Source: an uncultured Hyphomicrobiales bacterium (lineage in GTDB: Bacteria; Bacteroidota; Ignavibacteria; Kapaibacteriales; UBA2268). Taken from it: a DNA stretch of 64,000 nt. Within the stretch, counting starts at the first letter, position 1, and every line of letters starts with the position of its first letter. The notes under the pieces were generated by a model. That model made no database searches, was not told where the DNA came from, and saw only the letters and a program-made list of their open reading frames with translations. Where the stretch lies: the NCBI GenBank assembly GCA_964454445.1, contig CAYVTD010000012.1, positions 45 to 64,044 on the forward strand, read 5' to 3'. Shown one piece after another: positions 24,301 through 64,000 of this stretch. Position numbers and translations under genes: made by a program.

Positions 24301-24474
24301 CTATTTGTTGTCGATATTCTCGGAAGGACGGTCGATAAAATTCTCGAACACAACCATAAGGCAGGATTTTATCAAATCACTTATGATGCTTCAAAAATTA
24401 ACACCGGAATATATTTCTTTGTTCTACAGTCCCCAACTAAAGTTGTTACTAAAATGGCTGAGGTGCAAAAATGA
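21334..24474 (+). CDS. Large T9SS-secreted cell-surface adhesin-like protein with an N-terminal IgGFc-binding-like domain, PKD domains, about four tandem Ig-like Cys-containing repeats (SprB-type) and a C-terminal sorting domain
   Basis: PKD motifs (NWNFGDGSTSS and WDFGDGNKSF) are present. Repeats of ~80 aa of the form NAG.DV.IC......IGSPAT.GT.PY...WSP..GL are visible. The C-terminal domain (KLFVVDILGRTVDKI...GIYFFVLQSPTKVVTKMAEVQK) matches the T9SS sorting-domain pattern. Confidence 0.7.
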   Translation: MKPIYRHIFSKHSAIMLLMLCLALMSANAQITTKGKDFWFGFMENYNEDNLTLKVFISSENNASGVISIPQNNWTQNFTVTANQSTIIAIPNNVGHSKGAGAQKTAIHVTTDNEVNVFAMNYRKESSDGTLVLPTNALGSNYYVMSYTPMINSEFLIIGVEANTKLDIISPSGTKSTLTLNKGDAYQFKSKEDYTGYYISSDAYGAKPFAVFSGNQCVNIPPSISACDHIVEQLFPVRSWRRTFVTVPLQTRNGDTYRILASRNNTEIKINGTSVAALNQGQFYELILKSPSVIAGNYPICVAQYSNGQSYDNANADPFMIILSPVDQTRYDITFHVFDFPNISHNYLNVVTKTSCVSTLRLDGAVISSAFSQVPFDPSYSYAQLSISPGSHRLIGNEDCGFNAYVYGYGSYDSYGYSAGTSLDTLSISLVVNTNCAGTPTEFFVKSRPYTIKNYNWNFGDGSTSSLERPKHAYKSGGVYEVRLVVTYDDNEKDTSVQTFVITEPKAKIYYTGGGCGNLKLQFTNMSTVVGGVINYYEWDFGDGNKSFVENPEHIYNKVGEYDIVLMVRTTNGCISFDTTKINIYPMPKVNAGADVEICLNSSTEIGSPATSGTAPYIYQWSPSTGLDAVDKPTVIASPKVTTNYIVTVTDKHGCIGRDTIQVIVNPLPVANAGNDVNICFGETITIGSPATGGTPPYVKYEWSPAEGLSATNTSSVDASPLDTTVYIVTVTDSKGCIDTDTIRVNVWPLPTPVIKPLGPTWFCSCDSVILDAQNFGYTNYLWSTGETTRMITVRDPGNYTVTVTDTNGCVNTSPPETISVTYPTAKIALPSTIQSASTGSQISIPLFIKESEHLDTCKVYKYQVKIRMKRSCLVPMDPNNKGNIVGEERTMTLNGTRKQGDSVLMLFDFMAVLGNTSSTSLEIIDFQWLDCPFQVDTSGSFFQIDNICLAGNKERLYFENSNQISLMPSIINSQTDVLYKVAEDGIAKLFVVDILGRTVDKILEHNHKAGFYQITYDASKINTGIYFFVLQSPTKVVTKMAEVQK

Positions 24475-31320: not shown

Positions 31321-32607
31321 TTAGCTTGCTATTGGAATTCTTATTGTTATGGTGGTACCAGCATTGGGTTTGCTGTCAATTTTAAAGTCTCCATTATGCA
31401 GATCAATCAACTTGATAACTATTGATAACCCAAGCCCGGAACCCTGTTGCTCGTATATTTTTCTTTCAAACTGCATATATGCATCGACTTGACTGATCTG
31501 CTCCTCGGTAAAGCCCCTACCTGAATCAATTATTTGAATTGATAAATAATTATTATCTATTATAGCCATAATTTTGACAATAGTCCCCTTGTCAGAATAT
31601 TTTAGTGCGTTGTCAATTAATTCTTCAACAATTTTGCTAAAATACTCTTCAGATATACTAATGGGGACATCTACGATTGATAAACTAATGTCATTTTCCC
31701 GGGAATATTTCTGAGAAAGCATTACAGATTTATCGTTCAAGGTGTCATAGATGGAGGTTGTTACTTGTTTTTGAAGATTTAAGATTTCGAACATATCTGA
31801 AGAAATGAGAGATAGATTAGCATAAAACAAATAATTCTCTGTTAATCGCCTGAGTCGCTCAGCAGATAGTTTAGCGTCGTTTAGCACTTCTTTTGCTTCA
31901 TTATATTCGATTTTGTCGTAATAGTTGATAAGAAAATCAACCGTTCCGATAATTTGATTGATGGGCGTTCTAAACTCGTGAGGCAAAGCCATGCTAAGAT
32001 TCGATTGCAGATCTTCAAATTTATCTGCAAGTTGCTTTTTGCTCTTCACTAGGTTCATAGTCCGGAAAGCAACCATTTGCTCGAGAGTATCTAGATTTTC
32101 GAGCTGATTGATGTGAAGTAAAACATTTTCAAGCGTTATAGCAAAAAGCCCGGAATGGATATTGCATACTAAAAAAAATGTTTGCCCTAATTTTTCCGGT
32201 GGGGTATCCACTCTAAGAATAATTATACCGATAACTCCATCAGCTTTTAGCAGTGGAACAGCAACACTATAACTATTATCAAAAAATGTAAATTCACTCT
32301 GTTCATAAGAAATGGAAACATTTTTCAAAGCATCACCAATAACTCCCTTATCTACAAGCACTTGAAAAATATTAGAACATAGTTCAGCATCCTGTGCAGG
32401 TAAGGTAAGGTCGTGATAAAACTCGAATGTTTCTTCGTTCAATAAATATAATGAGGCACAAATCACTTGCGGTATTTGAAGAAAAACATTCAAGCCCTGA
32501 TTCTTTACAATAGGCAAGCGCCTCTCGTGCATACTAAATTTACAGTATTCTTCGATTGCCTCGAGAGTAACACAATATTTTTTTAAAACTAACTCTTTCA
32601 TTGTCAA
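31321..32607 (-). CDS. Cytoplasmic sensor histidine kinase with a GAF-like N-terminal domain
   Basis: The H-box is ALPHEFRTPINQIIG, and the HATPase_c region shows IIDSGRGF...GSGLGLSIV. There is no transmembrane segment. It overlaps the upstream HDOD gene by 4 nt. Confidence 0.8.
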   Translation of the reverse strand: MTMKELVLKKYCVTLEAIEEYCKFSMHERRLPIVKNQGLNVFLQIPQVICASLYLLNEETFEFYHDLTLPAQDAELCSNIFQVLVDKGVIGDALKNVSISYEQSEFTFFDNSYSVAVPLLKADGVIGIIILRVDTPPEKLGQTFFLVCNIHSGLFAITLENVLLHINQLENLDTLEQMVAFRTMNLVKSKKQLADKFEDLQSNLSMALPHEFRTPINQIIGTVDFLINYYDKIEYNEAKEVLNDAKLSAERLRRLTENYLFYANLSLISSDMFEILNLQKQVTTSIYDTLNDKSVMLSQKYSRENDISLSIVDVPISISEEYFSKIVEELIDNALKYSDKGTIVKIMAIIDNNYLSIQIIDSGRGFTEEQISQVDAYMQFERKIYEQQGSGLGLSIVIKLIDLHNGDFKIDSKPNAGTTITIRIPIAS

Positions 32608-33458
32608 TGTCCTTTTGAGCTAATAAGTATAGAAACTGCATCTTCATAGCTTTTTATTATCACAGGAGCTATGTTTGAGAATTGTTTTATATCAAGATTC
32701 AGAATCTCCCATATCTCTGGATTAGGTCTTGGTATGACTTTGTCACCAGCACCTCCTAGATGCAAAGCCCTTGCAATAGCATCTGCCAGATGAACGCAAG
32801 CGACTAAATTATCTGGCTTCCCATTTACTGTTCCTTGTAAATGGTATTTAATTACGTTGATAAGAGATTCAGGGATATCCCATTTTTGAGCTACCATAGC
32901 ACCAAGCTCAAGGTGGTCTATTCCAAGCACAGCTATCTCAGCATTACCAATTCTCGTATTATTTTCAACAACATAGTTTATCACTTTTGAATAATCAATC
33001 TTTCCGTGATAAAGCAACAATAGTTTTCCGATATCATGAATGATTCCAGCAACGAAATAGTTATCCACTAGTTTTTCGTTAATTAGAGTTCCAAGAATCC
33101 TTGTTATTACTCCAACAGCAATGGAATGTTTCCAATGATCGACCAAACTAAAATATGGATTAGGCTTGTAATTCTTGAACATATCAATTATCGAAAGCGA
33201 AAACACAATATTCTTTACTTCATTGAAACCGAGGAAAAAAATTGCTTTTTGAATTGTATCTATCTTTGTAGAAATACCGAAAACTGGAGAATTAACTGTT
33301 CGTAACAGCTTCAAAGTAGAAGCCTGATCTCTTTCAATGATATCAGAAATATCCTTTGCGGAAGTCCGTGTATTACTCATTGCTTCCAACAATTGAGAAT
33401 AAATTGTTGGTAGAGTAGGCAAATCTTTTACATTTGTTAATATATCAGAAATATCCAT
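32604..33458 (-). CDS. HDOD domain signalling protein
   Basis: The HDOD pattern is present (...FGISTKIDTIQKAIFFLGF...GIIHDIGKLLL...). Confidence 0.7.
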   Translation of the reverse strand: MDISDILTNVKDLPTLPTIYSQLLEAMSNTRTSAKDISDIIERDQASTLKLLRTVNSPVFGISTKIDTIQKAIFFLGFNEVKNIVFSLSIIDMFKNYKPNPYFSLVDHWKHSIAVGVITRILGTLINEKLVDNYFVAGIIHDIGKLLLLYHGKIDYSKVINYVVENNTRIGNAEIAVLGIDHLELGAMVAQKWDIPESLINVIKYHLQGTVNGKPDNLVACVHLADAIARALHLGGAGDKVIPRPNPEIWEILNLDIKQFSNIAPVIIKSYEDAVSILISSKGH

Positions 33459-47015: not shown

Positions 47016-48416
47016 TTATGGTTTTATATCATATTTGTATATTTTTGTTCGTAGGGTTGATGATGGCAATTTGAGTAATTCGGCGGCTTTTGCCATATTT
47101 CCACCTGAAAAAAGAACGGCTTTTGTGATAATTTCCTTTTCAGTATCAATTATCATATCTTCGAATGATTTGCTTCCAATCTCGAATCTTTCGGACTTGA
47201 GCAAAGGGGTCCTGAGCTCTGGCGGGATTAAATTTTTGTCAATACTGCCTCCATCGGAAAGGATTAATAAACGCTCAGTGATGTTTTTTAATTCTCTGAT
47301 GTTACCGGGCCAATGATAAGACGTTAGTATATCCATTGCCTCTTTTGTAACTTCAATTTTTTTACCTGGAGATAGAACAGAAATGAAGTTATTGATAAGT
47401 AGAGGAATATCTTCTTTTCGTTCCCGCAAGGGTGGGATATGAATTGGAAAGATATTAAGCCGGTAATACAAATCCTCCCTGAACCTTCCTTCGCTGACTA
47501 GTTTGCTAAGATCTACCTTAGTCGAAGCAATAACTCTAACGTCAATTTTAATTGTTTTGCTGCTGCCGACGCGTTCTAATTCCTGTTCCTGCAACACACG
47601 TAGTAATTTTACTTGCAAATCCAAGGGAACATCGTCGATATCGTCGAGATAAATAGTGCCATCATCAGCAAGCTCAAATCTGCCTGGGCGTTGCTTGTCT
47701 GCACCCGTAAAAGAACCCTTTTCATGACCGAACAATTCACTCTCGAAGACTTCGCGGGCTAATACAGCGCAGCTTACTTTTAAAAAAGGAGCATTTCTCC
47801 TATCACTGTTGTAATGAAGCACTCCAGCGTGCAATTCCTTTCCTGTGCCTGTTTCGCCTGTAATCAGCACAGTTGTTTTTTTCGCGGCTACTGTTTCGAT
47901 TAATTTTTTTATATTATTACCTTGGGGGCTATTACCAACGATTGAGTCAATACCATAAGTTTTTTTAATGTCAGACTTTAACCAAAAATTTTCTTTTTTT
48001 ACCTTATATAGTTCCTCGATTTTTCGCAGTTTCATTATTAGTTCTTCAGTTCTAAAAGGTTTTGTGATGTAATCGTATGCTCCATTCTGCATACATTGCA
48101 CAGCAGATTCGACAGTGGCAAAAGCGGTCATAAGAATCACATATACATCGGGATTTATTTCCTTAGCTCTCTTTAATAACTCAGTTCCGTTCATCTTCGG
48201 CATACGAATATCGGAAACAATAATGTCAATGCCACCAGCTTTGAAAATGTTAAGCGCCTCGACAGGATTCTCTTGAGTAACAACATCATAACCGTTATCA
48301 ACAAGCTCATCTTTGATTGTTACTCTAAGGATTTTCTCATCTTCAACAACAAGTATTTTTAATTTGCTGATAATAACTCCAATATCTTTTTGATAAAACT
48401 CGACGATATTTCGCAA
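47016..48416 (-). CDS. Sigma-54-dependent response regulator (NtrC/Fis family: receiver, AAA+ and helix-turn-helix (HTH) domains)
   Basis: The receiver domain contains the phospho-acceptor Asp in IVSDIRMP. The AAA+ domain shows LITGETGTGKE and a GAFTGA-like loop (GSFTGA). The C-terminus carries a Fis-type HTH. Confidence 0.85.
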   Translation of the reverse strand: MRNIVEFYQKDIGVIISKLKILVVEDEKILRVTIKDELVDNGYDVVTQENPVEALNIFKAGGIDIIVSDIRMPKMNGTELLKRAKEINPDVYVILMTAFATVESAVQCMQNGAYDYITKPFRTEELIMKLRKIEELYKVKKENFWLKSDIKKTYGIDSIVGNSPQGNNIKKLIETVAAKKTTVLITGETGTGKELHAGVLHYNSDRRNAPFLKVSCAVLAREVFESELFGHEKGSFTGADKQRPGRFELADDGTIYLDDIDDVPLDLQVKLLRVLQEQELERVGSSKTIKIDVRVIASTKVDLSKLVSEGRFREDLYYRLNIFPIHIPPLRERKEDIPLLINNFISVLSPGKKIEVTKEAMDILTSYHWPGNIRELKNITERLLILSDGGSIDKNLIPPELRTPLLKSERFEIGSKSFEDMIIDTEKEIITKAVLFSGGNMAKAAELLKLPSSTLRTKIYKYDIKP

Positions 48417-48437
48417 AATTAATTTTTCAAGCTATTT

Positions 48438-49931
48438 TTATTCACTGCTTAAAGGCAGTTCAATAATTACAGTTGTTCCTTTCAAATATTCGCTTTCTAT
48501 CTTTATTTCTCCTTTGTGTGCCTGAATAATTCCATAACAAACATACAGACCAAGCCCCGTACCCATACCGGGCTCTTTTGTTGTATAAAACGGATCAAAT
48601 ACCTTGACTTTATCCTCCCCTTTTATACCGATTCCATTATCTTTAATCTTTACAATCAATTTCCCATCTTTTGTTCCCGCAGACAATTCTATTAAAAGAG
48701 GAAAATCTGATTCTATTGCTGTTCTCGATTCGATAGCATCAATGCCATTAATCAGCAAATTCACAAAGACTTGCTCTAATTGGTTGAAATTCCCAAAGGT
48801 TAATGATATGTTTTCTGGTGTATTATTAATAATACTTACATGATGCTTCTCAAATTTATAGGATATTAAAAGTATAGATTTTTCAAGTACTTCATTAATT
48901 TTGACATTTTGGAAATTCATCTCCGGTGTCCTCGAATAGTCAAGCATGAGCTTTACTACATTTTCCACTTTATCGACTGCTTCAGCCATCATCTCAAGAT
49001 ACTCCCTACTTTGTTCCTTGTTACCGGACGATTTATTCAATCTCCTGATACAATTCTGGATTCCGGCAATTGGATTATTTATCTCGTGTGCCAATCCGGC
49101 TGCTAATATTCCAATCGAAGCTAACTTCTCTGTTTGTATCAATTTATTGTATGATTGCTCCTTTTCTTTATAAACCTCGTCTAATCTGCTAACCATTTCG
49201 CTGAATTTACTTTCCAAAATATCTAACTCATCTTTAATTTGAATATGTCGCGAAAATATCGGCATAAGTCGTTTTTGCAACTTTGTAAACATATTATAAT
49301 TAGACTCGGATAATGTATATTCGATTTTTTCTGAGATTTTTATGATATTTTTTATTGGATTTGTTATAACTGATGCAAAAATGAATCCGCCTGTAATACC
49401 AATTGTTAAAAAGATTATTATCATAATTATTATCGGAATCAATCTTAATCTAAAATCTTTATAGCCAATATTATGATACATTCCTATTCTTACAAATACT
49501 TGTGGTGAACTGCTTATTTTATAAACAACTTCATAAATACATTCATCTTCTTTAACTCTGTCTTTTTTTGTAATACCAGCCCTTTTGGAAATTGCATCAT
49601 AATCCTCAAGCAAATAGCTGGCTTCATCGCTTCTTCCAATTATTTTACTTGGATTCTTAATATAAATAATTGAAAAGGCTATGGAATTATCTGATTCATA
49701 AAATCTGTCTATATACTCTTGTAATTGCTTGTAATCACCAACTTTAAGGTAATATTTCGACTGTTTGGAAAACAACCTGGCTAAGGATTCCGTAGTTTTG
49801 CATACTCCTTCTTCATGGATTGACAGCAGGTTTTCATAAAACATTATTATATTTATTAATCCAAATACTATAACAATCGCTACAATAGCAATAGTAAACT
49901 TCCAGAAAAGCGGCATATAAAACTTTTTCAT
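48438..49931 (-). CDS. Membrane sensor histidine kinase (two transmembrane helices and a periplasmic sensor domain)
   Basis: The H-box is LAHEINNPIAGI. HATPase_c shows DNGIGI...GTGLGLYV. Confidence 0.8.
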   Translation of the reverse strand: MKKFYMPLFWKFTIAIVAIVIVFGLINIIMFYENLLSIHEEGVCKTTESLARLFSKQSKYYLKVGDYKQLQEYIDRFYESDNSIAFSIIYIKNPSKIIGRSDEASYLLEDYDAISKRAGITKKDRVKEDECIYEVVYKISSSPQVFVRIGMYHNIGYKDFRLRLIPIIIMIIIFLTIGITGGFIFASVITNPIKNIIKISEKIEYTLSESNYNMFTKLQKRLMPIFSRHIQIKDELDILESKFSEMVSRLDEVYKEKEQSYNKLIQTEKLASIGILAAGLAHEINNPIAGIQNCIRRLNKSSGNKEQSREYLEMMAEAVDKVENVVKLMLDYSRTPEMNFQNVKINEVLEKSILLISYKFEKHHVSIINNTPENISLTFGNFNQLEQVFVNLLINGIDAIESRTAIESDFPLLIELSAGTKDGKLIVKIKDNGIGIKGEDKVKVFDPFYTTKEPGMGTGLGLYVCYGIIQAHKGEIKIESEYLKGTTVIIELPLSSE

Positions 49932-49953
49932 TTGGCCTTACCTTTACTTTCCC

Positions 49954-51360
49954 CTAATTGCTATCATTTACATTGTTATCCTTTTCTTCAGCTTTTAATT
50001 TCTGAAGATATTGCTCAACATTCTTTCTCTCAGTAATATCCAAAGAATATTCAATCATCTGAACAACTTCCCCATTATCGTCTAAAATCGGATAGCCATA
50101 GACCTCAATATCCCGAGGCTGATTGTTGTTATCATAGTGGATATGTTGAGTTACAAAAGGTTTTTTGCTTTCGATTACTTTTCTTATTGGGCATATATGC
50201 TCGGTTCCCGAGCAGGGAGCATCAATGTCGTGCGTAATTTTATAGCATTTCTTGCTTGCTAGGTCTTCACTAAACTTTGACGCCGAGTTTGCTAAAACTA
50301 TCGAATAATCTTTCACATCAATCACATAAAAAGGGTGTGGCAGCGCTTCAATCACATCTTTAAGGAATTTGTTTCTTTCTTTTATCTCTTGTTCCACCTT
50401 CTTCAGCTTGGTAATATTTCTTTCGAAAACTGCCACTCTGGCAACCCCGCCGTCAACTCCAAACAGGGGATAAATCGTCGATTCATAGAAATCGTCCTTA
50501 TCTTTCATCTCATAATTAAAAGCCGTACAATTCTTTAGAACATAATCAACTTGCTCTTTTTTGTCAAATAATTTGCTTTTATTTGCAAAATCATATATCT
50601 TAGAGCCAATTAGCTTGTCGGCTGTTTTGCCAATCTTTTGCAATCCTGCTTCATTCATCGAAAGTATTACGCCTTCGACATCGAGCAGATAAACAGGATC
50701 TTTTGGAGCATTAAGCAAAGCACGTGAAACTCTTTCGCTTTCTAATAACCTTTTTTCCACCATTTTCCTTTCGCTAATATCTCTTTGTATTGCAAGGAAT
50801 CCTACCAATTTACCTTTATCATCGAAAATCGGATTCGCAGAACCTTCAATATTCAAAAAATCCCCGGATTTTTTCTTATTTATAAACTCTCCCCTAATTA
50901 CTTCGCCTTCAGTTATTCTTTTCCAGAAATATTTATAATCATCATCTTTCATCACACCGCTTTTCAGTATTCTCGGCGTGTGTTTATTTACTACTTCTTC
51001 AGTCGAATGCCCGTAAACTTTAGTAAATTCAGGATTTATATATCTAATAATTCCTTTTGTATCGGTTAAAAATACAACTTCTCCCGATGTTTCGACAGCT
51101 TTCTTAAACATCATTAATTCGCTCTCTGCTTTTTTTCGTCTTCTAATAAACAAAATCACTAAAACACCAATGAAAAGCAAGATTGACAAGATTAACAATC
51201 GCCTTAGCATCATTGCATCTGATTGGACATAGATTAAGCTTCCCAAAAACGATTTTTCATAAACAAAACTCTCTAATATGGCATTAACAAACCACATTGC
51301 AATGCCCATTACGAATGCTAAACCGATAATAAAAGTTTTTTCTTTCATATATTTATTCAT
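49954..51360 (-). CDS. Membrane-anchored PAS-domain sensor protein (about three PAS/PAC modules, no output domain)
   Basis: It has two N-terminal transmembrane helices and repeated PAS S-box patterns. It ends without a kinase or GGDEF domain, 22 nt upstream of the histidine kinase gene. Confidence 0.7.
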   Translation of the reverse strand: MNKYMKEKTFIIGLAFVMGIAMWFVNAILESFVYEKSFLGSLIYVQSDAMMLRRLLILSILLFIGVLVILFIRRRKKAESELMMFKKAVETSGEVVFLTDTKGIIRYINPEFTKVYGHSTEEVVNKHTPRILKSGVMKDDDYKYFWKRITEGEVIRGEFINKKKSGDFLNIEGSANPIFDDKGKLVGFLAIQRDISERKMVEKRLLESERVSRALLNAPKDPVYLLDVEGVILSMNEAGLQKIGKTADKLIGSKIYDFANKSKLFDKKEQVDYVLKNCTAFNYEMKDKDDFYESTIYPLFGVDGGVARVAVFERNITKLKKVEQEIKERNKFLKDVIEALPHPFYVIDVKDYSIVLANSASKFSEDLASKKCYKITHDIDAPCSGTEHICPIRKVIESKKPFVTQHIHYDNNNQPRDIEVYGYPILDDNGEVVQMIEYSLDITERKNVEQYLQKLKAEEKDNNVNDSN

Positions 51361-51630
51361 TTTTCTAAAAAAACAATCACTTTCTAATTATATATATATT
51401 TTTATGCCACAATATTTACAATATATAAAATTATTTCTTTTTCTCAACTGAATAAACAATAAAAAAACAAAAAACCACATAATTAATTTTTTTATAAGAC
51501 AGAAATCTCAAAGCAAAAGCTATTATTTGCAATACACTATTTTTTACTATTAATCGCCTTATAAACAAATCAATTATTAAATAATATTTTTCGCGAGTTG
51601 GATATGAAATTTGTTACTGCTTTGTAATTA

Positions 51631-53235
51631 ATGCAGTTTAACATATTGGATGCAAATGAAATGGCTGAAGAAAAAGCAAAAATATTGTGGATAGATGACG
51701 AAATAGAGTTATTGAAACCACATATTATCCTTCTAGAACAAAGGGGCTACCACGTAAATACATCGACTAATGGTGAAGATGCTATCGAAATGGTTAGAGG
51801 AACTCATTACGGTCTTATCTTCCTCGATGAATCAATGGTTGGTATGAGTGGCTTGGATACACTGCCGTTACTCAAGCAAATCGATCCGGTAACGCCTGTG
51901 GTTATGGTAACCAAAAATGAGGCAGAATCGTTGATGGAAGAAGCCTTAGGTAGTAAAATCGATGATTATCTGACCAAACCCGTTAATCCGGCACAAATCC
52001 TTGCGGCTTGCAAAAAATTTATCGAATCCGAACGTATAACACAAGAGCGGCTTACCCAGGACTATCTCGTCGGTTTCAACGAAATTCGGTCAAAAATGAT
52101 GGATAGACTCGATTGGCAAGATTGGAAAGAAATTTTCGAAAAGCTTGTGAAATGGTCGATTGAACTCGATCGCCATCCCGAATTGGGCTTTTTGTCAACT
52201 TTGGAAGATCAATGGCGCGAATGCAATGTGCAATTCTCGAAATTCATCGAAGATAACTATCAGTATTGGGTAGAAAACGAAAATAACACAGATGTGCCGA
52301 TAATGTCTCCACATATTAATGATAAATATCTATTGCCATTGCTCAAGACAGGCAAGCCGACAGTTTTTTTTGTAATCGACTGCCTTCGGGCAGACCAATG
52401 GCTTGTAATATCAGAACTACTAAGCCCATATTTTTCTTTCGATTTGGATTATTATCTGTCAATCATTCCTACAGCCACCCCATACGCAAGAAATGCAATT
52501 TTTAGTGGTTTATTTCCTATTGATATTCAAAAGTATTATCCACAATGGTGGTTGGGCGAGCCTTATGACGAATCGCACAAACAAAATGCTTATGAAAAAG
52601 AACTTTTAGAGGAATACATTTCGAGGAGAAGGCTCAAGTTAAAAAATAATTTTACTTATCTGAAGATACACGAGACCGAGTTTGGCAAGCGCGTGGAAAG
52701 CGACATTAAGCGGCTTGCAAAACAGCATTTAACAGCGATAGTTGTCAATGCAGTCGATATGATAGCACATAGCCGCTCGGATTACGCCATTTTAAAAGAA
52801 ATAGCTCCTGACGAAGCGGCTTACCGCTCCTTGACCCGCTCCTGGTTTCAACATTCTTCCCTGTTTGGAATGCTCAAACAACTCGCAGAGATGAAAGATG
52901 TGCAAATACTGCTTACAACTGACCATGGCTCGATCAGGTGTATGCGAGGAGTAAAAGTGCTGGGCGATCGCGACACAACCACTTGTCTGCGCTATAAATT
53001 TGGCAGAAATGTGAAAGCAGACGAACGCCACGCCATCCAATTGAAAGAATTGCAAAAGTTCAAATTACCAAAGGCGGGGGTAACTGTAAATAATATTATT
53101 GCAAAAGAAGATTATTATTTCGTTTATCCAACTGACTATCACCATTATTTGCAACGTTATCGAGACAGTTTCCAGCACGGTGGTGTTTCGCTCGAAGAGA
53201 TGATAATCCCAATAGTAAACTTGAAACAAAGGTAA
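51631..53235 (+). CDS. porX: PorX-type T9SS response regulator: CheY-like receiver fused to a PglZ (alkaline-phosphatase superfamily) domain
   Basis: ILWIDDEIELLKPHIILLEQRGYHV is the PorX receiver signature. The PglZ blocks are FFVIDCLRADQW, IIPTATPYARNAIFSGLFP and LLTTDHGS, and the C-terminus ends HGGVSLEEMIIP. The ATG at 51661 (MAEEKAK...) is an alternative, possibly better, start. Confidence 0.8.
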   Translation: MQFNILDANEMAEEKAKILWIDDEIELLKPHIILLEQRGYHVNTSTNGEDAIEMVRGTHYGLIFLDESMVGMSGLDTLPLLKQIDPVTPVVMVTKNEAESLMEEALGSKIDDYLTKPVNPAQILAACKKFIESERITQERLTQDYLVGFNEIRSKMMDRLDWQDWKEIFEKLVKWSIELDRHPELGFLSTLEDQWRECNVQFSKFIEDNYQYWVENENNTDVPIMSPHINDKYLLPLLKTGKPTVFFVIDCLRADQWLVISELLSPYFSFDLDYYLSIIPTATPYARNAIFSGLFPIDIQKYYPQWWLGEPYDESHKQNAYEKELLEEYISRRRLKLKNNFTYLKIHETEFGKRVESDIKRLAKQHLTAIVVNAVDMIAHSRSDYAILKEIAPDEAAYRSLTRSWFQHSSLFGMLKQLAEMKDVQILLTTDHGSIRCMRGVKVLGDRDTTTCLRYKFGRNVKADERHAIQLKELQKFKLPKAGVTVNNIIAKEDYYFVYPTDYHHYLQRYRDSFQHGGVSLEEMIIPIVNLKQR

Positions 53236-53439
53236 GAGGTATTAATCAACCCACCAATCTCCATTTTTTGGTTTCTGATTTAGACCGGTTTATTGAAAGT
53301 ATTATCATTCAAATTTTAATATTTTCATCTATTAGTAATAAGTATTGGTATCTCAAATTGATAATGCAATAAAAGACGTTTAGTTTAGTCTTATTTTTAT
53401 TTAATAGTAGTAAATAAGTAAAAGTAATAATTAGAATTT

Positions 53440-54036
53440 ATGGAAAAGAAACAACTTGTTGTACTTGGATTGTCAGCATCACCTGGGACTGGTAGTGCTT
53501 ATGCTTTGATAATGAAGGAAATTGATGGTAATCGGCGTCTTCCAATTATCATAGGTGCCTTCGAGGCACAGGCAATAGCACTTGAAATGGAGGGAGTTGA
53601 GCCGCCACGCCCAATGACTCATGATTTATTAAAAAAGATATTAGATACATTTGATGAACAACTGACTGAGGTTTATATTAACGACCTTAAAGATGGAACT
53701 TTTTTCGCGAAATTAATTTTTGAGTATTCAAGTATAGAAATAGATGCTCGCCCAAGCGATGCGATTGCGCTTGCTGTTCGTTGCAATGTCCCAATATATG
53801 TAAATTCAGAAATATTAGACGAGACAGGAATAATACCTCAAGATGAGCAAACCGAGCAAGCACCTTATACGGCTCAGCCTTTTCAAGAGAAACCCGAACC
53901 ATATAAACAGCCAAAAGCCAAGAAAAGTCGCCTGGAAATGTTAAATGAAGATCTCGACAAGGCGATAAAAGATGAAAATTACGAGCTTGCCGCTAAAATT
54001 CGCGATGAAATAAAAAATTTGCTTGAAAGTTCATAG
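53440..54036 (+). CDS. Bifunctional nuclease (BFN/DUF151) family protein with a C-terminal UVR motif
   Basis: It has the BFN fold signature (...ARPSDAIALAVR...) and a UvrB/C-like helix (LNEDLDKAIKDENYELAAKIRDEI). Confidence 0.7.
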   Translation: MEKKQLVVLGLSASPGTGSAYALIMKEIDGNRRLPIIIGAFEAQAIALEMEGVEPPRPMTHDLLKKILDTFDEQLTEVYINDLKDGTFFAKLIFEYSSIEIDARPSDAIALAVRCNVPIYVNSEILDETGIIPQDEQTEQAPYTAQPFQEKPEPYKQPKAKKSRLEMLNEDLDKAIKDENYELAAKIRDEIKNLLESS

Positions 54037-54068
54037 ATTTTTTCTTAATTTTGTAAATGTTTTTTTCA

Positions 54069-54142
54069 GCCGGAGTAGCTCAGTTGGTTAGAGCATCGGA
54101 ATCATAATCCGAGTGTCGGCGGTTCAACTCCGTCCTCCGGTA
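54069..54142 (+). tRNA. tRNA-Met (anticodon CAT); elongator Met or a lysidine-modified tRNA-Ile2, but not an initiator
   Basis: I folded the cloverleaf by hand. The acceptor stem is GCCGGAG/CTCCGGT, the D arm GCTCAGTTGGTTAGAGC, the anticodon stem TCGGA/TCCGA with loop ATCATAA (CAT at 54103-54105), the T arm GGCGG-TTCAACT-CCGTC, and the discriminator is A. CCA is not encoded. A 1:72 base pair is present and there are no 3 G-C pairs in the anticodon stem, so it is not an initiator. Confidence 0.85.
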
Positions 54143-54264
54143 CAGCATAGCCTTTTTTTGGGGGGGATTTTTTTCATGATAATAGAATTATTTTCATTGA
54201 AAAACTTGCTTTTTTATTCGAATTTTTTATTATTTTTGTCTTTTGGCAGTTTCATAACTCTTAA

Positions 54265-55314
54265 ATGAAAAAAATTCTCGTCATAGATGATGCTGGGTTT
54301 GTTCTCGAAAGTACTTCGACTTTGTTACGTTTTGAAGGATATGAAGTATTTACTGCTTCAGACGGTATCAAAGGTGTCGAAGCAGCCCAGATGTACCAGC
54401 CAGATATGATATTGTGTGATATTTCAATGCCTGGATTAGACGGTTATGATGTGCTTGATATGCTTCGCAAGAATCCTTCGACTTCATTAACTCCTTTTAT
54501 TTTCTTAACAGCTTTTACAGAGAAATCTAATACGAGAGATGAACTGATTGCTGCAATCGATGCACAATGGGTAAAATATTCCCACTTTGCACAGCAAGTC
54601 AAAGACAAAGTAGAAGAAGTAGGTAGAAATGTATCCTATGCCCTTCCTCATGAATTTAGAACTGTCTTGAATGAGGTCATTAATTCTGCAAAATATCTTC
54701 AGACAAGTGCCAATACAGTAGAACCAGATGAAATCAAAGAACTAACTGGCGATATTATTCTTTCCTCCAACAGATTGATGAAAATTACTGAAAATTTTCT
54801 AATCTTTGTTAGAATCCAATCATTTAGCCACAATGAAGAAATGCGCCAACAGTTGCGAACTTATTTTACCGAAGAAGCCCCTACTGTTTTTGAAGATTTG
54901 TCGAAAATGAAAGCCAATAGTTACAATAGAAGTAATGATCTTGTTTTTAATATATCTGCTAAATCTCTCACACTCGAAGTATCAACCGAAAATTTCCACA
55001 TAATCGTCGATGAATTACTTGATAATTCATTGAAGTTTTCCGATTCTGGCACAAAGTTGTATTTAGATTTATGGCTGGATAATAGATTTATGTTTGTTTC
55101 CCTCAAAGATGAAGGCAGGGGAATGAGCAAGGAACAAATTGATAGTATTTCTGCCCTGTCTCAGTTCGAGCGCACAATTTACGAACAGCAAGGCATCGGA
55201 TTGGGACTAGTTATTGCAAAAAAAATGGTTGAGTTGCACGATGGTTCTTTTGTCATAGAGAGTGAAGAAAGTCAAGGAACACGCGTTATTTTCAGCTTGC
55301 CAATAAAAAAATGA
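54265..55314 (+). CDS. Hybrid signalling protein: N-terminal CheY-like receiver fused to a histidine-kinase core (HisKA + HATPase_c), with no transmembrane segment
   Basis: The receiver shows KILVIDDAGF...DMILCDISMPGLDGY. The H-box (ALPHEFRTVLNEVI) is the same unusual variant as in the kinase at 31321-32607. The ATPase region shows DEGRGMSKEQ...GIGLGLVIAKK. Confidence 0.75.
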   Translation: MKKILVIDDAGFVLESTSTLLRFEGYEVFTASDGIKGVEAAQMYQPDMILCDISMPGLDGYDVLDMLRKNPSTSLTPFIFLTAFTEKSNTRDELIAAIDAQWVKYSHFAQQVKDKVEEVGRNVSYALPHEFRTVLNEVINSAKYLQTSANTVEPDEIKELTGDIILSSNRLMKITENFLIFVRIQSFSHNEEMRQQLRTYFTEEAPTVFEDLSKMKANSYNRSNDLVFNISAKSLTLEVSTENFHIIVDELLDNSLKFSDSGTKLYLDLWLDNRFMFVSLKDEGRGMSKEQIDSISALSQFERTIYEQQGIGLGLVIAKKMVELHDGSFVIESEESQGTRVIFSLPIKK

Positions 55315-55395
55315 TCTCTTGCAACTATCCTACATTAAAATATTTCCTCTTTTATTCGTATCTCTTATTTTCCAATTCACAAAACAAAGGTAAAA

Positions 55396-56001
55396 ATGAT
55401 GAAATATTATAGAATTGTCTTATTATTAACAATAATGTATATTCTTGGCTTTGGAGCGCTAAACGCTGCTGAAAAAACAGGTTTCGACATAAAAGTAAGC
55501 TGCAGTCACGGTATGGAACACACATTAGACGATTGGGCAGGCAACTGGTTGATACTTGAATGGGTAAACTTCGAGTGTCCTTACGTAAAAAAGCATTATG
55601 AAACAAAAAATATGCAAAAATTACAAAAAAAATATACCGCAATGGGCGTGAAATGGCTTTCTGTTTGTTCTTCAGCACCGGGTAATGAAGGTTATTTTGA
55701 TAATCAAAGTATTAACAGGCGTATTAAATTATATCAAGCAAACATTTCTATGTATCTTGTCGATGAAAAAGGCGATTTAGCCAGAGCATACAATGTTAAA
55801 ACAACTCCGACGATTGTCGTCATTAATCCCGAAGGCGAAATAATGTATCAAGGATCTATTGACGACAAACCTACAAGCAATAAAAAAGATATCGAAGGAG
55901 CGAGAAATTATTTGTCAGAAATAATGGATGCAGTTTTAAAAGGAAGACCAGCTCCTATTACAAGCACAAAATCTTATGGATGTCCAGTAGAATATGAATG
56001 A
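55396..56001 (+). CDS. Secreted thioredoxin-fold protein (redoxin/TlpA-like)
   Basis: It has a signal peptide and a thioredoxin-like motif around WLILEWVNFECPYV, with a second Cys near the C-terminus (YGCPVEY). The assignment is by eye only. Confidence 0.4.
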   Translation: MMKYYRIVLLLTIMYILGFGALNAAEKTGFDIKVSCSHGMEHTLDDWAGNWLILEWVNFECPYVKKHYETKNMQKLQKKYTAMGVKWLSVCSSAPGNEGYFDNQSINRRIKLYQANISMYLVDEKGDLARAYNVKTTPTIVVINPEGEIMYQGSIDDKPTSNKKDIEGARNYLSEIMDAVLKGRPAPITSTKSYGCPVEYE

Positions 56002-59576: not shown

Positions 59577-59736
59577 AAACCTTCCGAAGGTTTATAACCT
59601 TCAGAAGGTTTTATATTAATACTCACAAAAAAAATATTATTTTAAATAAATTGTAACTTTTCAGCGAAAACTATGTATTATCATATATGTAAATGTGAAA
59701 ATCACAAAAAACAAACCATTAACTTTAGGAGTATGT
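59577..59736 (+). promoter_or_regulatory. Conserved hairpin plus leader/promoter block upstream of protease copy 1
   Basis: A hairpin AAACCTTCCGAAGG-(loop)-CCTTCAGAAGGTTT with one mismatch is followed by TTTTATATTAATACT and the conserved block TGTAACTTTT..GCGA...TGTATTATCA..TATGTAAATGTGAAAATCACAAAAA. The same block recurs 3220 bp downstream. Confidence 0.5.
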
Positions 59737-62700
59737 ATGAGAAAAAAACTAATGTCTCTAACTATAAGCATTCAACTTATATTAGTGTTTTTCACCTTAA
59801 ACGCTAGCGCTGATGATATATATATGAATAGCTTAGAATTACGCTTGCCACAAGAAAAGTATCAAAGTGTGGAATTGCTTACAACTAAAACACCGGAATC
59901 GACTCTTTGGCAAAAATTTTATAAAGATAACGGCGAATGGACAATCAATTTTGATAAATTAACATTGATGCCACATCGAGCTTTCGGTAAGTCAATTAAA
60001 ATCGACGGATTTGAAAAAATCAATAAAGAAAATATACAGCAGGCTGCTTTATCTTTTTTAAAGGAATATGAATCTACCTTTAATATTAGTGTAAACGATC
60101 TTCGATTTTTAAGAGCAACAAAAGCTGGCAAGGTTTGGTATGTAAGTTACCGCCAATTTGTTAAAGGAATCGAAGTGCTAACTTCAGAAATCGAGTTGAG
60201 AATCTTTGAAAATGGTAAGGTAATGGCATTTGGAATTGACTTTTTCAACGATATTTCGCTTGAACAAACTCAAATTGGAAATGAAAATGGTTTTTCGTTA
60301 GAACCCAAGATTTCTTATAATGTGGCAAAAGAAAAAGCAATGACTGGATTTAGCGAGAAAGCAAGGGCAAATGCTGTTATTTTAAGCGACGAACGCAGTG
60401 GACATACATATATCTTACCTGTCAAAACAAGTAACAAAATCACATATCATCTCGTTTATGATGTTAAAGTTCGCAGTATGGAGCCGTTTGGCATTTTTCA
60501 CACTTATATTGACGCAAAGAGCGGTGAGATACTCCGTCGAGTTAATTTAGTCAATAATGCTACGCAATTTGGTGTTTCCGGTGATGTTAAAATGAAAAGC
60601 GCTAACGATACACTTGTAAACAAGCCCTTTAGTTTTCAAAACATCAAGATTAATAATAACAACTATGTTACTGACATAAAAGGCAATATCGATGTTGAAA
60701 CTTCCGGCGTATCCACATATCTTGCCAGTTTTGATGGACCATATTGCAAAGTTGATTATGATGGAAGAGTGCGTTCTTCTGCTAGTGGCACATTTTCTGC
60801 TAATGAGCCATTCGCCTTTAATTGGAATGACAATAATTCTACGTTATTCGAAAGAAATCTATTCTTTCATGCTAACCATATCAGAGAAAAATACAAGGAG
60901 ATTGATCCAGATTGTAATGTGATGGACAGGCTGATAACCATAGTCCTGCAAATGAAGTCACAAATGGGGACCAATGCTTATTCTAATTTAGACTCGATTG
61001 TCTTTACCAATGTTAGCGACGAATCAATGGTGCTCGCTGGCGGTCCTTCTGTCCTCTACCATGAATGGGGTCATTCGCTTAATAATCTCTTATATCAATC
61101 ACAAGGTTCACCGGAAGGAATGGTCAATCCAGGATGCCACGAAGGAACGGCTGATGCTACTTCTTGCTTGTTAATCGATGACTCAAGGATTGGACCAGGT
61201 GTTTTCAAAGCAGACACTAGCTTGTCTATAAGAAATTTACTCAATCAGAATAAATATCCAGATGATATCAGTGGCGAATCGCATAATGATGGGCAAATAC
61301 TTGGTGGAGCTATTTGGGATCTACGTTTGGCAACAACAAATGAACTCACAACGCATTTGTTGCAATTTGCCAGATATGGCTTGCCTGATGACTATGATAT
61401 TGGAATTGCTTTTTCAGAGTGGTTCATCGAGTTTCTTGTTGCCGACGATGACGATGGGGATTTATCTAATGGGACACCACATCTTTTGGAAATCATTAGT
61501 TCATTTAATAATCATCAAATAGGTACAAACCTAATCGCTGCATTGAGTTTTTCGCATATTTCATTGAAGGATACAGAAAATTATAAAGATCCTTTTACAG
61601 TCAATTTCGACTTTGATATAAAAAGTGCATTTCCTTTGAAGACTGATTCTGTCCGATTAGCATATACTACAGACGACTTTGCAACAATAAGTTACGTAAG
61701 CGCAACTGAGTATGGCCCTGGCAAATATACAGCAGACATTCCTGGACAAGAAGCAAGTAAGTTCATTAAGTACTTCATGGTTTGTTATGATCCTTACTCA
61801 AAGTCTTTTATAGATTTACCCCTAACGGGCAGAAAAGAGCCATTTTCATTTCTTGCCGGCTATAAACAAGTGGTTTATGAGAATTTCGAGGATGCAAGCA
61901 ATTGGAAGATGGGTGATGTTGATGATAATTTTGCAGGCAAGGGCTATTCTATTGCAGAGCCTAAGGAGGTAAATCTTGGCATTTTTGGTGCCCCAGAAAT
62001 TATACTTCAACCTGCCGGTGGGCATAGCGAGGAGGGAAAGAAATGCATTGTAACAGGTCCCGAAACGTCTAACGGTTTCAATTTCATCAATTATTTCTTT
62101 ATTTCAGGCAAAACAACTGCTTTTTCTCCGATATATGACTTTTCCTCCTATAGCAATGCTATCTTAAGTTATTATGAATGGTTTAATGTTCTATCCTTAG
62201 GTGAGCCAAATCCAGATAATCCACCAACATTAAGCATCTCTTATAGTGCAAACGGTGGTGAGTGGACAACTCTTTATAAAGGAATGCCTTCAGGTTCGGG
62301 ATGGCTCAAAAAAACAATCAGTATCCCGAAAGAAGTTAATGGAGCAAAAGAAGTGCAGTTTCGTTTTGTCTTGGAAAACCCTTCCCAACAGTATGAAGCA
62401 TTAGTCGAAAGCCTTATAGACGACTTTGAGATATTAGTGCCAATTAGTAATATTTCGTCAATAAAGGACAATCAACTAATAGCACTAAGTACCGTACAAT
62501 GTTTTCCAAATCCGTTTAACGAATACTCAAGAATAGATTATTCTATGAGCCAGTCAACTGATGTAACACTCCGAATTCTGGATATATTTGGCAATACTAT
62601 ATATGAAAAAACACTAAATAACCAGACGGAAGGGCATAATAGTATTATTTGGGATGGGCTCGACAGCAATGGTGTTAAGGTGTCGAGTGGAATGTATTTC

Positions 62701-62754
62701 GTAGAAATCAGTACTGGTGCCAAACGTTCGTTTGGAAAATTGGTAAAAATGTAA
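59737..62754 (+). CDS. T9SS-secreted zinc metalloprotease (gluzincin, M4/M36-like) with an N-terminal FTP/PepSY-like propeptide and a C-terminal T9SS sorting domain; copy 1 of a tandem pair
   Basis: The HExxH motif is VLYHEWGHSL, with a downstream third ligand EGTAD. The propeptide-like block is QQAALSFLKEYESTF...WYVSYRQFVKGIEV. The C-terminal domain (CFPNPFNEYSRIDYS...GMYFVEISTGAKRSFGKLVKM) fits the sorting-domain pattern. AGGAG sits 6 nt upstream of the ATG. Confidence 0.7.
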   Translation: MRKKLMSLTISIQLILVFFTLNASADDIYMNSLELRLPQEKYQSVELLTTKTPESTLWQKFYKDNGEWTINFDKLTLMPHRAFGKSIKIDGFEKINKENIQQAALSFLKEYESTFNISVNDLRFLRATKAGKVWYVSYRQFVKGIEVLTSEIELRIFENGKVMAFGIDFFNDISLEQTQIGNENGFSLEPKISYNVAKEKAMTGFSEKARANAVILSDERSGHTYILPVKTSNKITYHLVYDVKVRSMEPFGIFHTYIDAKSGEILRRVNLVNNATQFGVSGDVKMKSANDTLVNKPFSFQNIKINNNNYVTDIKGNIDVETSGVSTYLASFDGPYCKVDYDGRVRSSASGTFSANEPFAFNWNDNNSTLFERNLFFHANHIREKYKEIDPDCNVMDRLITIVLQMKSQMGTNAYSNLDSIVFTNVSDESMVLAGGPSVLYHEWGHSLNNLLYQSQGSPEGMVNPGCHEGTADATSCLLIDDSRIGPGVFKADTSLSIRNLLNQNKYPDDISGESHNDGQILGGAIWDLRLATTNELTTHLLQFARYGLPDDYDIGIAFSEWFIEFLVADDDDGDLSNGTPHLLEIISSFNNHQIGTNLIAALSFSHISLKDTENYKDPFTVNFDFDIKSAFPLKTDSVRLAYTTDDFATISYVSATEYGPGKYTADIPGQEASKFIKYFMVCYDPYSKSFIDLPLTGRKEPFSFLAGYKQVVYENFEDASNWKMGDVDDNFAGKGYSIAEPKEVNLGIFGAPEIILQPAGGHSEEGKKCIVTGPETSNGFNFINYFFISGKTTAFSPIYDFSSYSNAILSYYEWFNVLSLGEPNPDNPPTLSISYSANGGEWTTLYKGMPSGSGWLKKTISIPKEVNGAKEVQFRFVLENPSQQYEALVESLIDDFEILVPISNISSIKDNQLIALSTVQCFPNPFNEYSRIDYSMSQSTDVTLRILDIFGNTIYEKTLNNQTEGHNSIIWDGLDSNGVKVSSGMYFVEISTGAKRSFGKLVKM

Positions 62755-62768: not shown

Positions 62769-62796
62769 ATCTTCTAAAAGTTAGCTTTCAAGAAGG

Positions 62797-62961
62797 AAAC
62801 CTTCCGAAGGTCTGAAATCTTCGGAAGGTTTTATATTAATACTAATACTCGCAAAAACTGTTGTTTTTGAATAAAACTGTAACTTTTTTGCGACTTCAAG
62901 TGTATTATCAAGTATGTAAATGTGAAAATCACAAAAATCAATTGTTTAATTAGGGGTAATT
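62797..62961 (+). promoter_or_regulatory. Second copy of the conserved hairpin plus leader block (upstream of protease copy 2, downstream of copy 1)
   Basis: It is a perfect 12-bp stem AACCTTCCGAAG / CTTCGGAAGGTT with the 9-nt loop GTCTGAAAT, followed by TTTTATATTAATACT and the same conserved leader block. It probably also serves as the terminator for copy 1. Confidence 0.5.
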
Positions 62962-64000
62962 ATGACAAAAAAACTAATATTACTAGCTATAAGCGTTCAG
63001 CTTATATTCGGATTATTCATTTTTAATACTAATGCAAAAGATGGTTATATTAAAAGCTTAGAGTTGCGTTTACCACAAGAAAAGTTTCAAAATATGGAAT
63101 TGCTGACAACTATTCCGCCAAAATCAACTCTTTGGCAAAATTTTTATAAGGATAACGGTGAATGGACAATCAGTTTTGATAAATTAACATTGATGCCACA
63201 TCGAGCTTTCGGTAAGTCGATAAAAATCGATGGATTTGAAAAAATCGACAAAGAAAATATACAACAGGCAGCTTTATCCTTTTTGAAGAAATATGAATCT
63301 ACATTTAATATAAATATCAACGATCTTCGTTTTTTAAGAGCAACGAAAGCTGGCAAGGTTTGGTATGTGAGTTTTCGCCAATTTGTTAAAGGAATCGAAG
63401 TGCTAACTTCAGAAATCGAATTGAGGATCTTTGAAAATGGTAAGATAATGGCATTTGGAATTGACTTTTTCAACGATATTTCGCTTGAACAAACTCAAAT
63501 TGGAAATGAAAATGGTTTTTCGTTAGAACCCAAGATTTCTTATAATGTGGCAAAAGAAAAAGCAATGGCTGGATTTAGCGAAAAGACAAAATCTAATGCT
63601 GTTATTTTAAGCGATGACCGCAGTGGACAAACATTTATATTGCCCGTCAAAACGAGCAACAGCATCACATTTCATCTTGTTTATGACGTCAAAGTTCGCA
63701 GTTTCGAACCATTTGGCATTTTCCATTCTTATATAGATGCGAATAGCGGCGAGATGCTCCGTCGAGTTGATTTAGTCAATAATGCTACACATTTTGGCGT
63801 TTCCGGTGATATAAGAATGAGAACATCTAACGATACAATTATGAACAAACCCTTTAGTTTTCAAAACATAAAAATAAATGGCCAGAACTATGTTACTGAC
63901 GAAAAAGGCAATATCAACGTTGAAATTGATAAAAAATCCACATTTCAAGCAACATTTGATGGACCATATTGCAAAGTAGATTATGATGGAAGGTCGCGTT
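62962..64000 (+). CDS. Paralogous T9SS-secreted M4/M36-like metalloprotease, copy 2 of the tandem pair. Its 3' end is truncated by the window: the first ~346 aa (propeptide region) lie within the window.
   Basis: Over the first ~340 aa it is ~75% identical by eye to copy 1 (the same LELRLPQEK...KAGKVWYVS...VNNAT...GPYCKVDYDGR blocks). Confidence 0.65.
   Translation, partial: MTKKLILLAISVQLIFGLFIFNTNAKDGYIKSLELRLPQEKFQNMELLTTIPPKSTLWQNFYKDNGEWTISFDKLTLMPHRAFGKSIKIDGFEKIDKENIQQAALSFLKKYESTFNININDLRFLRATKAGKVWYVSFRQFVKGIEVLTSEIELRIFENGKIMAFGIDFFNDISLEQTQIGNENGFSLEPKISYNVAKEKAMAGFSEKTKSNAVILSDDRSGQTFILPVKTSNSITFHLVYDVKVRSFEPFGIFHSYIDANSGEMLRRVDLVNNATHFGVSGDIRMRTSNDTIMNKPFSFQNIKINGQNYVTDEKGNINVEIDKKSTFQATFDGPYCKVDYDGRSR

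Follow-up and report, generated by a model that had tools for sequence, protein, structure and literature searches.

A PorX orthologue and a putative LvrB-class orphan histidine kinase with a switch-deleted receiver, juxtaposed in a Kapaibacteriales species

PorX is a type IX secretion system (T9SS) response regulator that binds PorL/GldL and SigP and has phosphodiesterase activity (PMC10951265, PMC9757075); the receiver residues that coordinate BeF3/Mg and the PglZ residues that hold two zinc ions were shown by Schmitz et al. (PMC9757075). PorY is an inner-membrane protein that has two transmembrane (TM) segments and, in the periplasm, a region for ligand binding (PMC4800418, PMC12152298), which spans A35-R149 and binds the PorA C-terminal domain (PMC12152298). 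Among histidine kinases that carry a receiver of their own, LvrB of Leptospira is the prototype Rec-controlled kinase, in which the Rec domain takes the phosphate and gates the kinase (PMC13269768), and ExsG is a soluble receiver-gated kinase that relays from an upstream kinase to a downstream regulator (PMC3899027). Here we have analyzed a stretch of 64,000 nucleotides from a Kapaibacteriales bacterium (contig CAYVTD010000012.1 of assembly GCA_964454445.1; hereafter, the window), in which a porX gene and the gene of a soluble receiver-histidine kinase (Rec-HK) lie on the same strand, separated by 1,030 nt both in the window and in contigs of the same species. Most probably these are two unrelated signalling genes that stand side by side by chance in one species: an ordinary PorX and an orphan kinase of the LvrB class, present here as an allele that has lost its receiver switch.

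A first-pass annotation of the window had listed a porX gene, a bifunctional-nuclease (BFN) gene, a tRNA-Met gene and a 349-aa open reading frame (ORF), and all four are present where it had placed them. The stretch from porX to the kinase gene reads as follows:

51631-53235, + strand: porX, T9SS response regulator, 534 aa (NCBIfam NF052313, Pfam, PDB match)
53440-54036, + strand: bifunctional-nuclease-domain protein with a C-terminal UVR motif, 198 aa (Pfam BFN_dom 146.5 bits, UVR 33 bits)
54069-54143, + strand: tRNA-Met(CAT), flanked by the nuclease and kinase genes (ARAGORN)
54265-55314, + strand: soluble Rec-DHp-CA histidine kinase, 349-aa deletion allele (Pfam, no TM segment)
54531/54532, + strand: junction of a 51-nt in-frame deletion in the kinase gene (protein and nucleotide alignment)

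The motifs by which PorX had been recognized in the first pass (ILWIDDEIELLKPHI, TATPYARNAIFSG and TTDHGS) were all found in the ORF at 51631-53235, and the identification held over the full length of the protein. Using the NCBIfam equivalog NF052313 (T9SS_RR_PorX, cut-off 300 bits), we obtained a score of 684.5 bits with residues 17-534 covered, and residues 17-532 aligned to the P. gingivalis PorX crystal structures 7pv7 and 7pvk with an E-value of 1e-146. The identity to P. gingivalis PorX (PgPorX, PGN_1019; PDB 7pv7, 7pva and 7pvk) is approximately 44%. A second pair of PorX-type structures, 8p6f and 8ted, which we take to be F. johnsoniae PorX (Fjoh_2906), matched the window protein with E-values of ~1e-133. 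Pfam returned Response_reg and PglZ, with the receiver at residues ~18-127 and PglZ at 246-438. A PglZ region resembling only that of the BREX phage-defence system would have spoken against PorX; the BREX-3 PglZ model gave 113.9 bits, below its cut-off of 250 bits, and the PorX model scored well above its own.

The residues that matter for PorX activity are also in place. The phospho-site of the receiver is complete (D22, D23, D66, T94 and K116, corresponding to D14, D15, D58, T86 and K108 of PgPorX), as are the Zn2 ligands D250, D431 and H432 (PgPorX D239, D415 and H416), the Zn1 ligands D376 and H380 (PgPorX D361 and H365) and the nucleophile T283 (PgPorX T272); none of the 11 residues compared in the phospho-site and the zinc site differs from PgPorX. 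Both serine residues of the PglZ dimer interface are kept too (S385/S389). Judged by its sequence, the 534-aa protein is a genuine, ordinary PorX orthologue and already known biology. It should fold into a CheY-like receiver, a helical linker and a zinc-dependent phosphodiesterase domain of the PglZ/alkaline-phosphatase type, sharing the receiver-linker-PglZ architecture of the P. gingivalis and F. johnsoniae proteins over its full length. By orthology, it would be expected to act as they do, dimerizing when phosphorylated, working as an oligonucleotide phosphodiesterase and binding PorL/GldL and SigP. Genes for cargo with the T9SS C-terminal domain (CTD) accompany porX in the window. The genes downstream differ from those of P. 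gingivalis: porX is followed by tsaE/ubK in P. gingivalis and by the BFN nuclease, tRNA-Met and Rec-HK genes here.

In the 349-aa kinase, Pfam recognized Response_reg at residues 4-99 and HATPase_c at 244-348, with HisKA in between (residues 126-186) at 25.6 bits, slightly under the cut-off of 26.9 bits. Membrane segments were called at a Kyte-Doolittle score of at least 1.6 over 19-mers, and since no 19-residue window of the kinase exceeds 1.05, we consider it to have no membrane anchor. Both the domain order and the hydropathy thus agree with the membrane-less receiver, HisKA and HATPase_c protein described in the first pass. The phospho-acceptor is D52 and the H-box histidine is H129; the invariants of the kinase core are all kept in the window allele (H129, N254, D282/G284/G286 and G310/G312/G314, the last three groups forming the N, G1 and G2 boxes). 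At E<=1e-10, we found 1727 homologues among 5.8 billion proteins. Of the 119 other matches listed, nearly all are 364-386 aa long, none departs from this domain order, and those with a label are from metagenome-assembled genomes of Ignavibacteria, Kapabacteria or 'Bacteroidota bacterium'. Several of the best matches from such genomes carry the label 'uncultured Hyphomicrobiales', which we took as a placeholder and kept out of the taxonomy. For comparison of loci we took the best 80 of 358 encoded relatives among GTDB species representatives. They form a family of ~367-aa soluble Rec-DHp-CA kinases, found in genomes of the Ignavibacteria/Kapabacteria type, with 46-69% identity over the full length, a conservation that appears unusually tight for a signalling protein.

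The intact form of the kinase, a 366-aa allele from the same species, was modelled with AlphaFold2 (AF2) as a canonical (beta-alpha)5 receiver whose alpha5 helix (residues 108-143) runs into the DHp domain (146-206, with the next helix at 146-164), followed by CA. The best Foldseek match of the kinase was Leptospira LvrB (8vc9; E-value 2.6e-21, 22% identity). Both proteins have the order Rec-alphaS-DHp-CA, a length of ~370 aa, no membrane anchor and, in the AF2 model, an alpha5 that is continuous into DHp. They differ in sequence (~22% identity), in the H-box, which in the Rec-HK reads YALPHEFRTV with Pro before the His and Val where Pro is usual after Arg-Thr, and in the absence of an adjacent LvrA-like kinase: no kinase is conserved beside the Rec-HK gene in the clustered loci. 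The LvrB model was not among the best 25 NCBIfam matches of the kinase. ExsG (Rhizobium NT-26/Agrobacterium) is likewise soluble, has an N-terminal receiver that controls the autokinase and occupies a relay position, but its core is of the HWE type, it is hexameric and phosphorylation of its receiver inhibits the kinase; the core of the Rec-HK family is of the HisKA type. The Rec-HK resembles PorY (PGN_2001) in its HisKA and HATPase_c core and in that its gene shares no operon with porX. It differs in topology and input: PorY lies in the inner membrane, with two TM segments and a region exposed to the periplasm, and the Rec-HK is soluble, with the N-terminal receiver as its input. By its architecture and the Foldseek match, the Rec-HK is most likely an orphan among the Rec-controlled histidine kinases; it would belong to the LvrB architectural class and represent a new uncharacterised member family.

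When the LvrB receiver is phosphorylated, its Rec dimer passes from an alpha4-beta5 to an alpha4-beta5-alpha5 arrangement, the signalling helices zip into a coiled coil and the CA domains are freed for autophosphorylation (PMC13269768). By analogy with LvrB and ExsG, an upstream kinase would phosphorylate the N-terminal receiver of the Rec-HK; the alpha4-beta5(-alpha5) face of the receiver, together with the alpha5/alphaS helix, would then gate autophosphorylation of the DHp histidine, and this residue would pass the phosphate to a downstream regulator.

The association of the kinase with porX was judged by gene neighbourhood, from the kinase side and from a second set of 80 metagenomic PorX loci whose PorX is 41-72% identical to that of the window. 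The order porX-BFN-tRNA-kinase was kept only in contigs of the same species (L001, L002 and L087), with 99.0-99.3% nucleotide identity. BFN, tRNA-Met and kinase keep their order in L001 and also in L004, a locus with 73% kinase identity, where the 9.8 kb available upstream contain PAP2 and unknown genes and no PorX. At 69% kinase identity (L006 and L007), neither BFN nor PorX is present. Sixty-four of the 80 species-level kinase loci have at least 2.7 kb upstream, and PorX adjoins the kinase in none of these 64; in two of the 80 (L083 and L086) PorX lies ~6 kb away on the opposite strand. From the other side, the kinase adjoins PorX in 0 of the 80 PorX loci (the downstream flank exceeds 2.2 kb in ~55 of them), and in three, from the same sub-lineage as L083 and L086, it lies 6-8 kb from PorX. 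The first pass had proposed to look for co-occurrence of the two genes in relatives; by gene neighbourhood, their adjacency is confined to this species. Because the adjacency is absent from the distant kinase loci and from the other PorX loci, the juxtaposition appears to be a species-specific rearrangement and the proximity coincidental as far as comparative genomics shows; the BFN-tRNA-Met-kinase unit seems to be older than its placement beside porX. We also considered whether the BFN nuclease works together with the phosphodiesterase PorX, and rejected the idea, as BFN adjoins PorX in 0 of the 80 PorX loci.

We then clustered all ORFs flanking the kinase in 82 loci. The commonest neighbours were dnaB (20/82, divergent), an unassigned protein of 250-280 aa (14 loci) and nif3 (11 loci), with a zinc-ribbon protein, ruvB and tsaE also frequent. 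From these data, the neighbours of the Rec-HK look to be housekeeping genes that depend on the lineage, the sole signalling exception being a small Hpt protein in one sub-lineage.

This Hpt-domain protein (~103 aa; 24.0 bits with Pfam Hpt, cut-off 24.6 bits) is encoded ~2.9 kb downstream of the Rec-HK in nine loci of that sub-lineage, inside the nif3/zinc-ribbon/ruvB block (for example L031:14197-14508, L083:6839-7174, L086:6841-7176, L103:14585-14920 and L104:14601-14903). It is a possible candidate for a relay partner of the Rec-HK family.

Regarding the 349-aa protein itself, the first pass had its length and domains right and overlooked that a protein of 366 aa has here been shortened by a deletion. 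An alignment with 12 relatives shows that the window kinase lacks exactly 17 residues, MRMGMEKGADDFIVKPF, which correspond to residues 90-106 of the 366-aa allele; its closest relative differs by only 8 further substitutions. The deleted stretch comprises most of alpha4 of the receiver, all of beta5, the switch residue Phe101 and the invariant Lys104-Pro105. Phe101 stands three residues before the Lys, the spacing of Y106 and K109 in CheY, and matches the aromatic residue of the Y-T switch. Eleven of the 17 deleted positions are invariant in an alignment of 20 family members, and the segment is kept in 81 of 82 orthologues, the window allele being the sole exception. D52, T82, F101 and K104 are present in the family consensus and in the 366-aa allele. 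The window allele keeps D52, T82, alpha5, H129 and the N, G1 and G2 boxes; of the receiver switch as known from the LvrB class, it lacks alpha4, beta5, F101 and K104. In the AF2 model of the window allele we found four strands, a stub helix at residues 82-85 and then a long alpha5, with no alpha4 or beta5.

At the DNA level, the deletion is one clean 51-nt gap with respect to L001, a contig to which the identity is otherwise 99.0-99.3% across 19.7 kb. An imperfect direct repeat, AAACCnnnTA, stands on either side of the deleted DNA, which is consistent with an origin by replication slippage. The 349-aa protein recurs unchanged on 8 contigs, which come from at least six samples (JGI 3300010357 and 3300028635; ENA ERZ27257461, ERZ27257488, ERZ27257495 and ERZ27257508), and the 366-aa allele on 7 contigs from at least three samples, none shared with the 349-aa samples listed. 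The two alleles belong to distinct haplotypes with linked single-nucleotide polymorphisms directly after the tRNA gene: the 121-nt spacer between tRNA-Met and the start of the kinase gene holds 13 haplotype differences, against ~7 per kb elsewhere. These lie at 54150-54175 and 54238-54253, include changes in a T-run and a G-run directly after the tRNA, and are in perfect linkage with the 51-nt deletion in nine other contigs. Given this recurrence across metagenomes, the deletion is real and present at the population level, and is not an assembly artefact.

What the loss does to the protein can be approached from LvrB, which uses the alpha4-beta5 surface for both its inactive and its active Rec dimers; the allele of this strain has no alpha4-beta5. 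The D56A mutation holds LvrB at its basal activity, and mutations in the Y-T switch are predicted by the authors' model to block activation (PMC13269768). As alpha4-beta5 forms the LvrB Rec dimer in both states, the deletion most likely uncouples the kinase from phosphorylation of its receiver. An uncoupled 349-aa kinase would either remain fixed at basal activity, like LvrB with D56A or with switch mutations, or be de-repressed.

One could argue instead that the 349-aa allele is no longer a working gene and is decaying into a pseudogene, with the receiver fold destroyed and the protein non-functional. Eleven invariant columns are lost, among them the invariant Lys and beta5, and the mean AF2 confidence for the receiver's first 80 residues falls from ~88 in the 366-aa allele to ~76 in the 349-aa allele. 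Moreover, the kinase gene carries 8 nonsynonymous and 2 synonymous codon differences between haplotypes, and 12 genes around it together carry 52 and 56 (Fisher p = 0.09, or p = 0.04 without the cargo gene); the excess is suggestive only. However, the contrast is not significant with the cargo gene included, and from the family alignment derived states seem to occur on both haplotypes. The deletion is exactly in frame, and the identical protein recurs in the independent samples with no further disruption. An ExsG variant without its receiver still had kinase activity (PMC3899027). Given that neither the ORF nor any of the kinase motifs is disrupted, a fully dead protein is not favoured, and we regard this explanation as unlikely. 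A recombination tract over the kinase gene was also considered and rejected: its 9.5 substitutions per kb are inside the range of its neighbours (2.4-13.4 per kb).

The question of which kinase serves PorX can be set against what adjoins porX elsewhere. In 50 of 81 loci tsaE lies directly downstream of porX (TIGR00150, 97.4 bits; for example L093:4643-5089; loci L093-L172), and tsaB follows at 18 of the 81. According to a 2026 report, ubK1, the gene of a kinase of the TsaE/YjeE family, lies downstream of porX in each of 81 strains of P. gingivalis, and UbK1 phosphorylates PorX in vitro (PMC13241743). The pairing of porX with tsaE/ubK in such diverse loci supports a broad functional link, as suggested by gene order, and extends to many lineages a pair that had been reported within P. 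gingivalis strains. Using tblastn, we found no homologues of tsaE, tsaB or Hpt in the 64-kb window.

Nine of the PorX loci (L151, L152, L153, L154, L155, L157, L158, L159 and L162; for example L155:197-1675) encode a 2-TM histidine kinase of ~490 aa immediately upstream of porX and in the same orientation. Their PorX is 41-44% identical to that of the window, and the kinases have the H-box AHQLGTPISAL and an AtoS-like core. No PorY-specific NCBIfam model surfaced for these kinases, whose top matches were the generic AtoS and ZraS. By their arrangement, the nine loci resemble operons of PorY and PorX, whose genes are unlinked in P. gingivalis, and their kinases would be better PorY-type candidates than anything in the window.

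Within the window, a kinase is also encoded in the operon that diverges from porX:

47016-51360, - strand: divergent three-gene operon, a separate two-component system (Pfam, NCBIfam, TM segments, annotation of L001)
49954-51360, - strand: protein with TM and three PAS domains, no kinase domain (Pfam, TM prediction)
48438-49931, - strand: 2-TM AtoS/ZraS-like histidine kinase, no PAS (NCBIfam, TM prediction)
47016-48416, - strand: sigma54 NtrC-type response regulator (Pfam, NCBIfam)

The gaps inside this operon are 22 and 21 nt, and it shares a 270-nt intergenic region with porX. The kinase at 48438-49931 could be the PorY equivalent: its TM segments (residues 3-38 and 157-191) enclose a ~118-aa extracytoplasmic stretch, a topology that resembles PorY; AtoS, followed by ZraS, heads the NCBIfam matches of its core, just as for the nine porX-upstream kinases; and it is the best match in the window to the porX-linked kinases (27% identity, E-value 5e-15). 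Yet this similarity is limited to the generic kinase core, and the gene sits in a tight operon with the TM-PAS protein and an NtrC-type regulator, the canonical partner of AtoS/ZraS. None of the operon genes has a homologue next to PorX in the 80 PorX loci. Owing to the PorY-like topology and the matching NCBIfam profile, the kinase is a marginally better PorY candidate than the Rec-HK, although we consider that role improbable. The composition of 47016-51360 suggests a system complete in itself, in which the sensor is split over two genes.

In L004 we observed a 905-aa protein with PAS and HATPase_c that is possibly a fused counterpart of the sensor pair of this operon.

Finally, the soluble Rec-HK could itself be the phosphodonor of PorX in this lineage, either in place of PorY or as a step of a relay, its position 1 kb away reflecting the link. 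The first pass had offered both versions. The genes are on one strand and close together, Rec-HKs are relay kinases by design, the kinase of PorX is debated even in P. gingivalis (PMC9757075) and the usual downstream tsaE/ubK is missing from this porX locus. As a relay intermediate, the kinase fits the class to which LvrB and ExsG belong, but its link to PorX finds no support in the neighbourhood; as a PorY-like partner it fares worse, having neither a TM segment nor a periplasmic region and no conserved adjacency to porX. A nuclease gene and a tRNA gene stand in between, the adjacency is already gone at 73% and 69% orthologue identity, and the kinase and PorX locus counts given above contain no further case. 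Besides, of the kinases in the window, the Rec-HK bears the least resemblance to the membrane kinases linked to porX (no tblastn match at E<=1e-3), and the allele of this strain has no receiver switch. Taking both sides, we find this role very improbable. That a rearrangement put BFN-tRNA-Met-Rec-HK at the usual site of tsaE/ubK and that the Rec-HK was then recruited as a cytoplasmic phosphodonor of PorX is the least probable account of all; if it were true, the co-circulation of switch-competent 366-aa and switch-deleted 349-aa kinases would entail differences in T9SS regulation between strains.

Several points weigh against our preferred reading of two unrelated genes in chance proximity. 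PorX and PorY are themselves unlinked in P. gingivalis (PMC4800418, PMC10951265), and a missing conserved adjacency is not a proof of missing phosphotransfer. The assignment to the LvrB class draws on the architecture and the 22%-identity Foldseek match, and the superposition on LvrB is poor (TM-score ~0.37, root-mean-square deviation ~25 A), as expected for a monomer model of a flexible multidomain protein. Both AF2 models have moderate confidence (mean predicted local distance difference test scores of 72 and 76), and AF2 cannot measure stability.

With respect to T9SS regulation, the outcome is mostly negative, as the neighbouring kinase gives no handle on who phosphorylates PorX. Worth keeping are the switch-deletion allele, the pairing of porX with tsaE/ubK and the nine membrane kinases upstream of porX. 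The 2026 work on LvrB puts the alpha4-beta5 surface at the core of Rec-HK activation, and the 349-aa allele, from which the same surface has been cleanly removed, is a natural mutant with which to probe this paradigm outside Leptospira.

A promoter and terminator scan of 51300-55500 detected no terminator-like site on the + strand and 25 promoter-like matches, a modest increase over the mean of shuffled sequences (14.7, sd 3.6) obtained with a consensus that is not of the Bacteroidota type.

The window encodes a paralogue of the Rec-HK in a further gene pair:

31321-32607, - strand: Rec-HK-paralogous kinase with the H-box ALPHEFRT (core similarity to the Rec-HK)
32604-33458, - strand: HDOD protein, overlapping the kinase 31321-32607 by 4 nt

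The kinase cores of the two proteins are 37% identical over 262 aa (E-value 6e-55) and have the block QFERxIYEQQGxGLGL in common. The shared ALPHEFRT had been pointed out in the first pass and is present in both (SYALPHEFRTV in the Rec-HK, SMALPHEFRTP in the 31321-32607 kinase). It had also been called a rare variant: in the ORFs of the ~160 loci compared, a Pro directly before the H-box His occurs in 76 of 93 matches with H-box and G2-box, all 76 in the Rec-HK family, so within these loci it is confined to that family, and its rarity is plausible from this limited sample. The label of GAF-kinase given to the 31321-32607 protein was not upheld, since Pfam found no GAF in its N-terminal 200 residues at E<=10, and indeed no match at all in this 200-aa domain.

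Regarding the T9SS context, there are no core por/gld genes in the 64-kb window. An ECF-type sigma factor (Sigma70_r2 and r4_2) is encoded at 6363-6935 (- strand), overlapping the start of a 467-aa ORF at 4970-6373 (- strand) that the first pass had presumed to be an anti-sigma factor and that has no Pfam match. Of the at least four T9SS cargo proteins that had been counted, we confirmed three T9SS-CTD cargo genes: a Por_Secre_tail gene at 21334-24474 and, from the annotation of the 99%-identical L001, another at 59695-62754 and the truncated gene that follows it (62794-64000). The last two are tandem paralogues with FlgD_ig and Por_Secre_tail and ~83-84% nucleotide identity. The gene at 59695-62754 shows the highest substitution density between haplotypes, 13.4 per kb, with 21 nonsynonymous and 16 synonymous differences.

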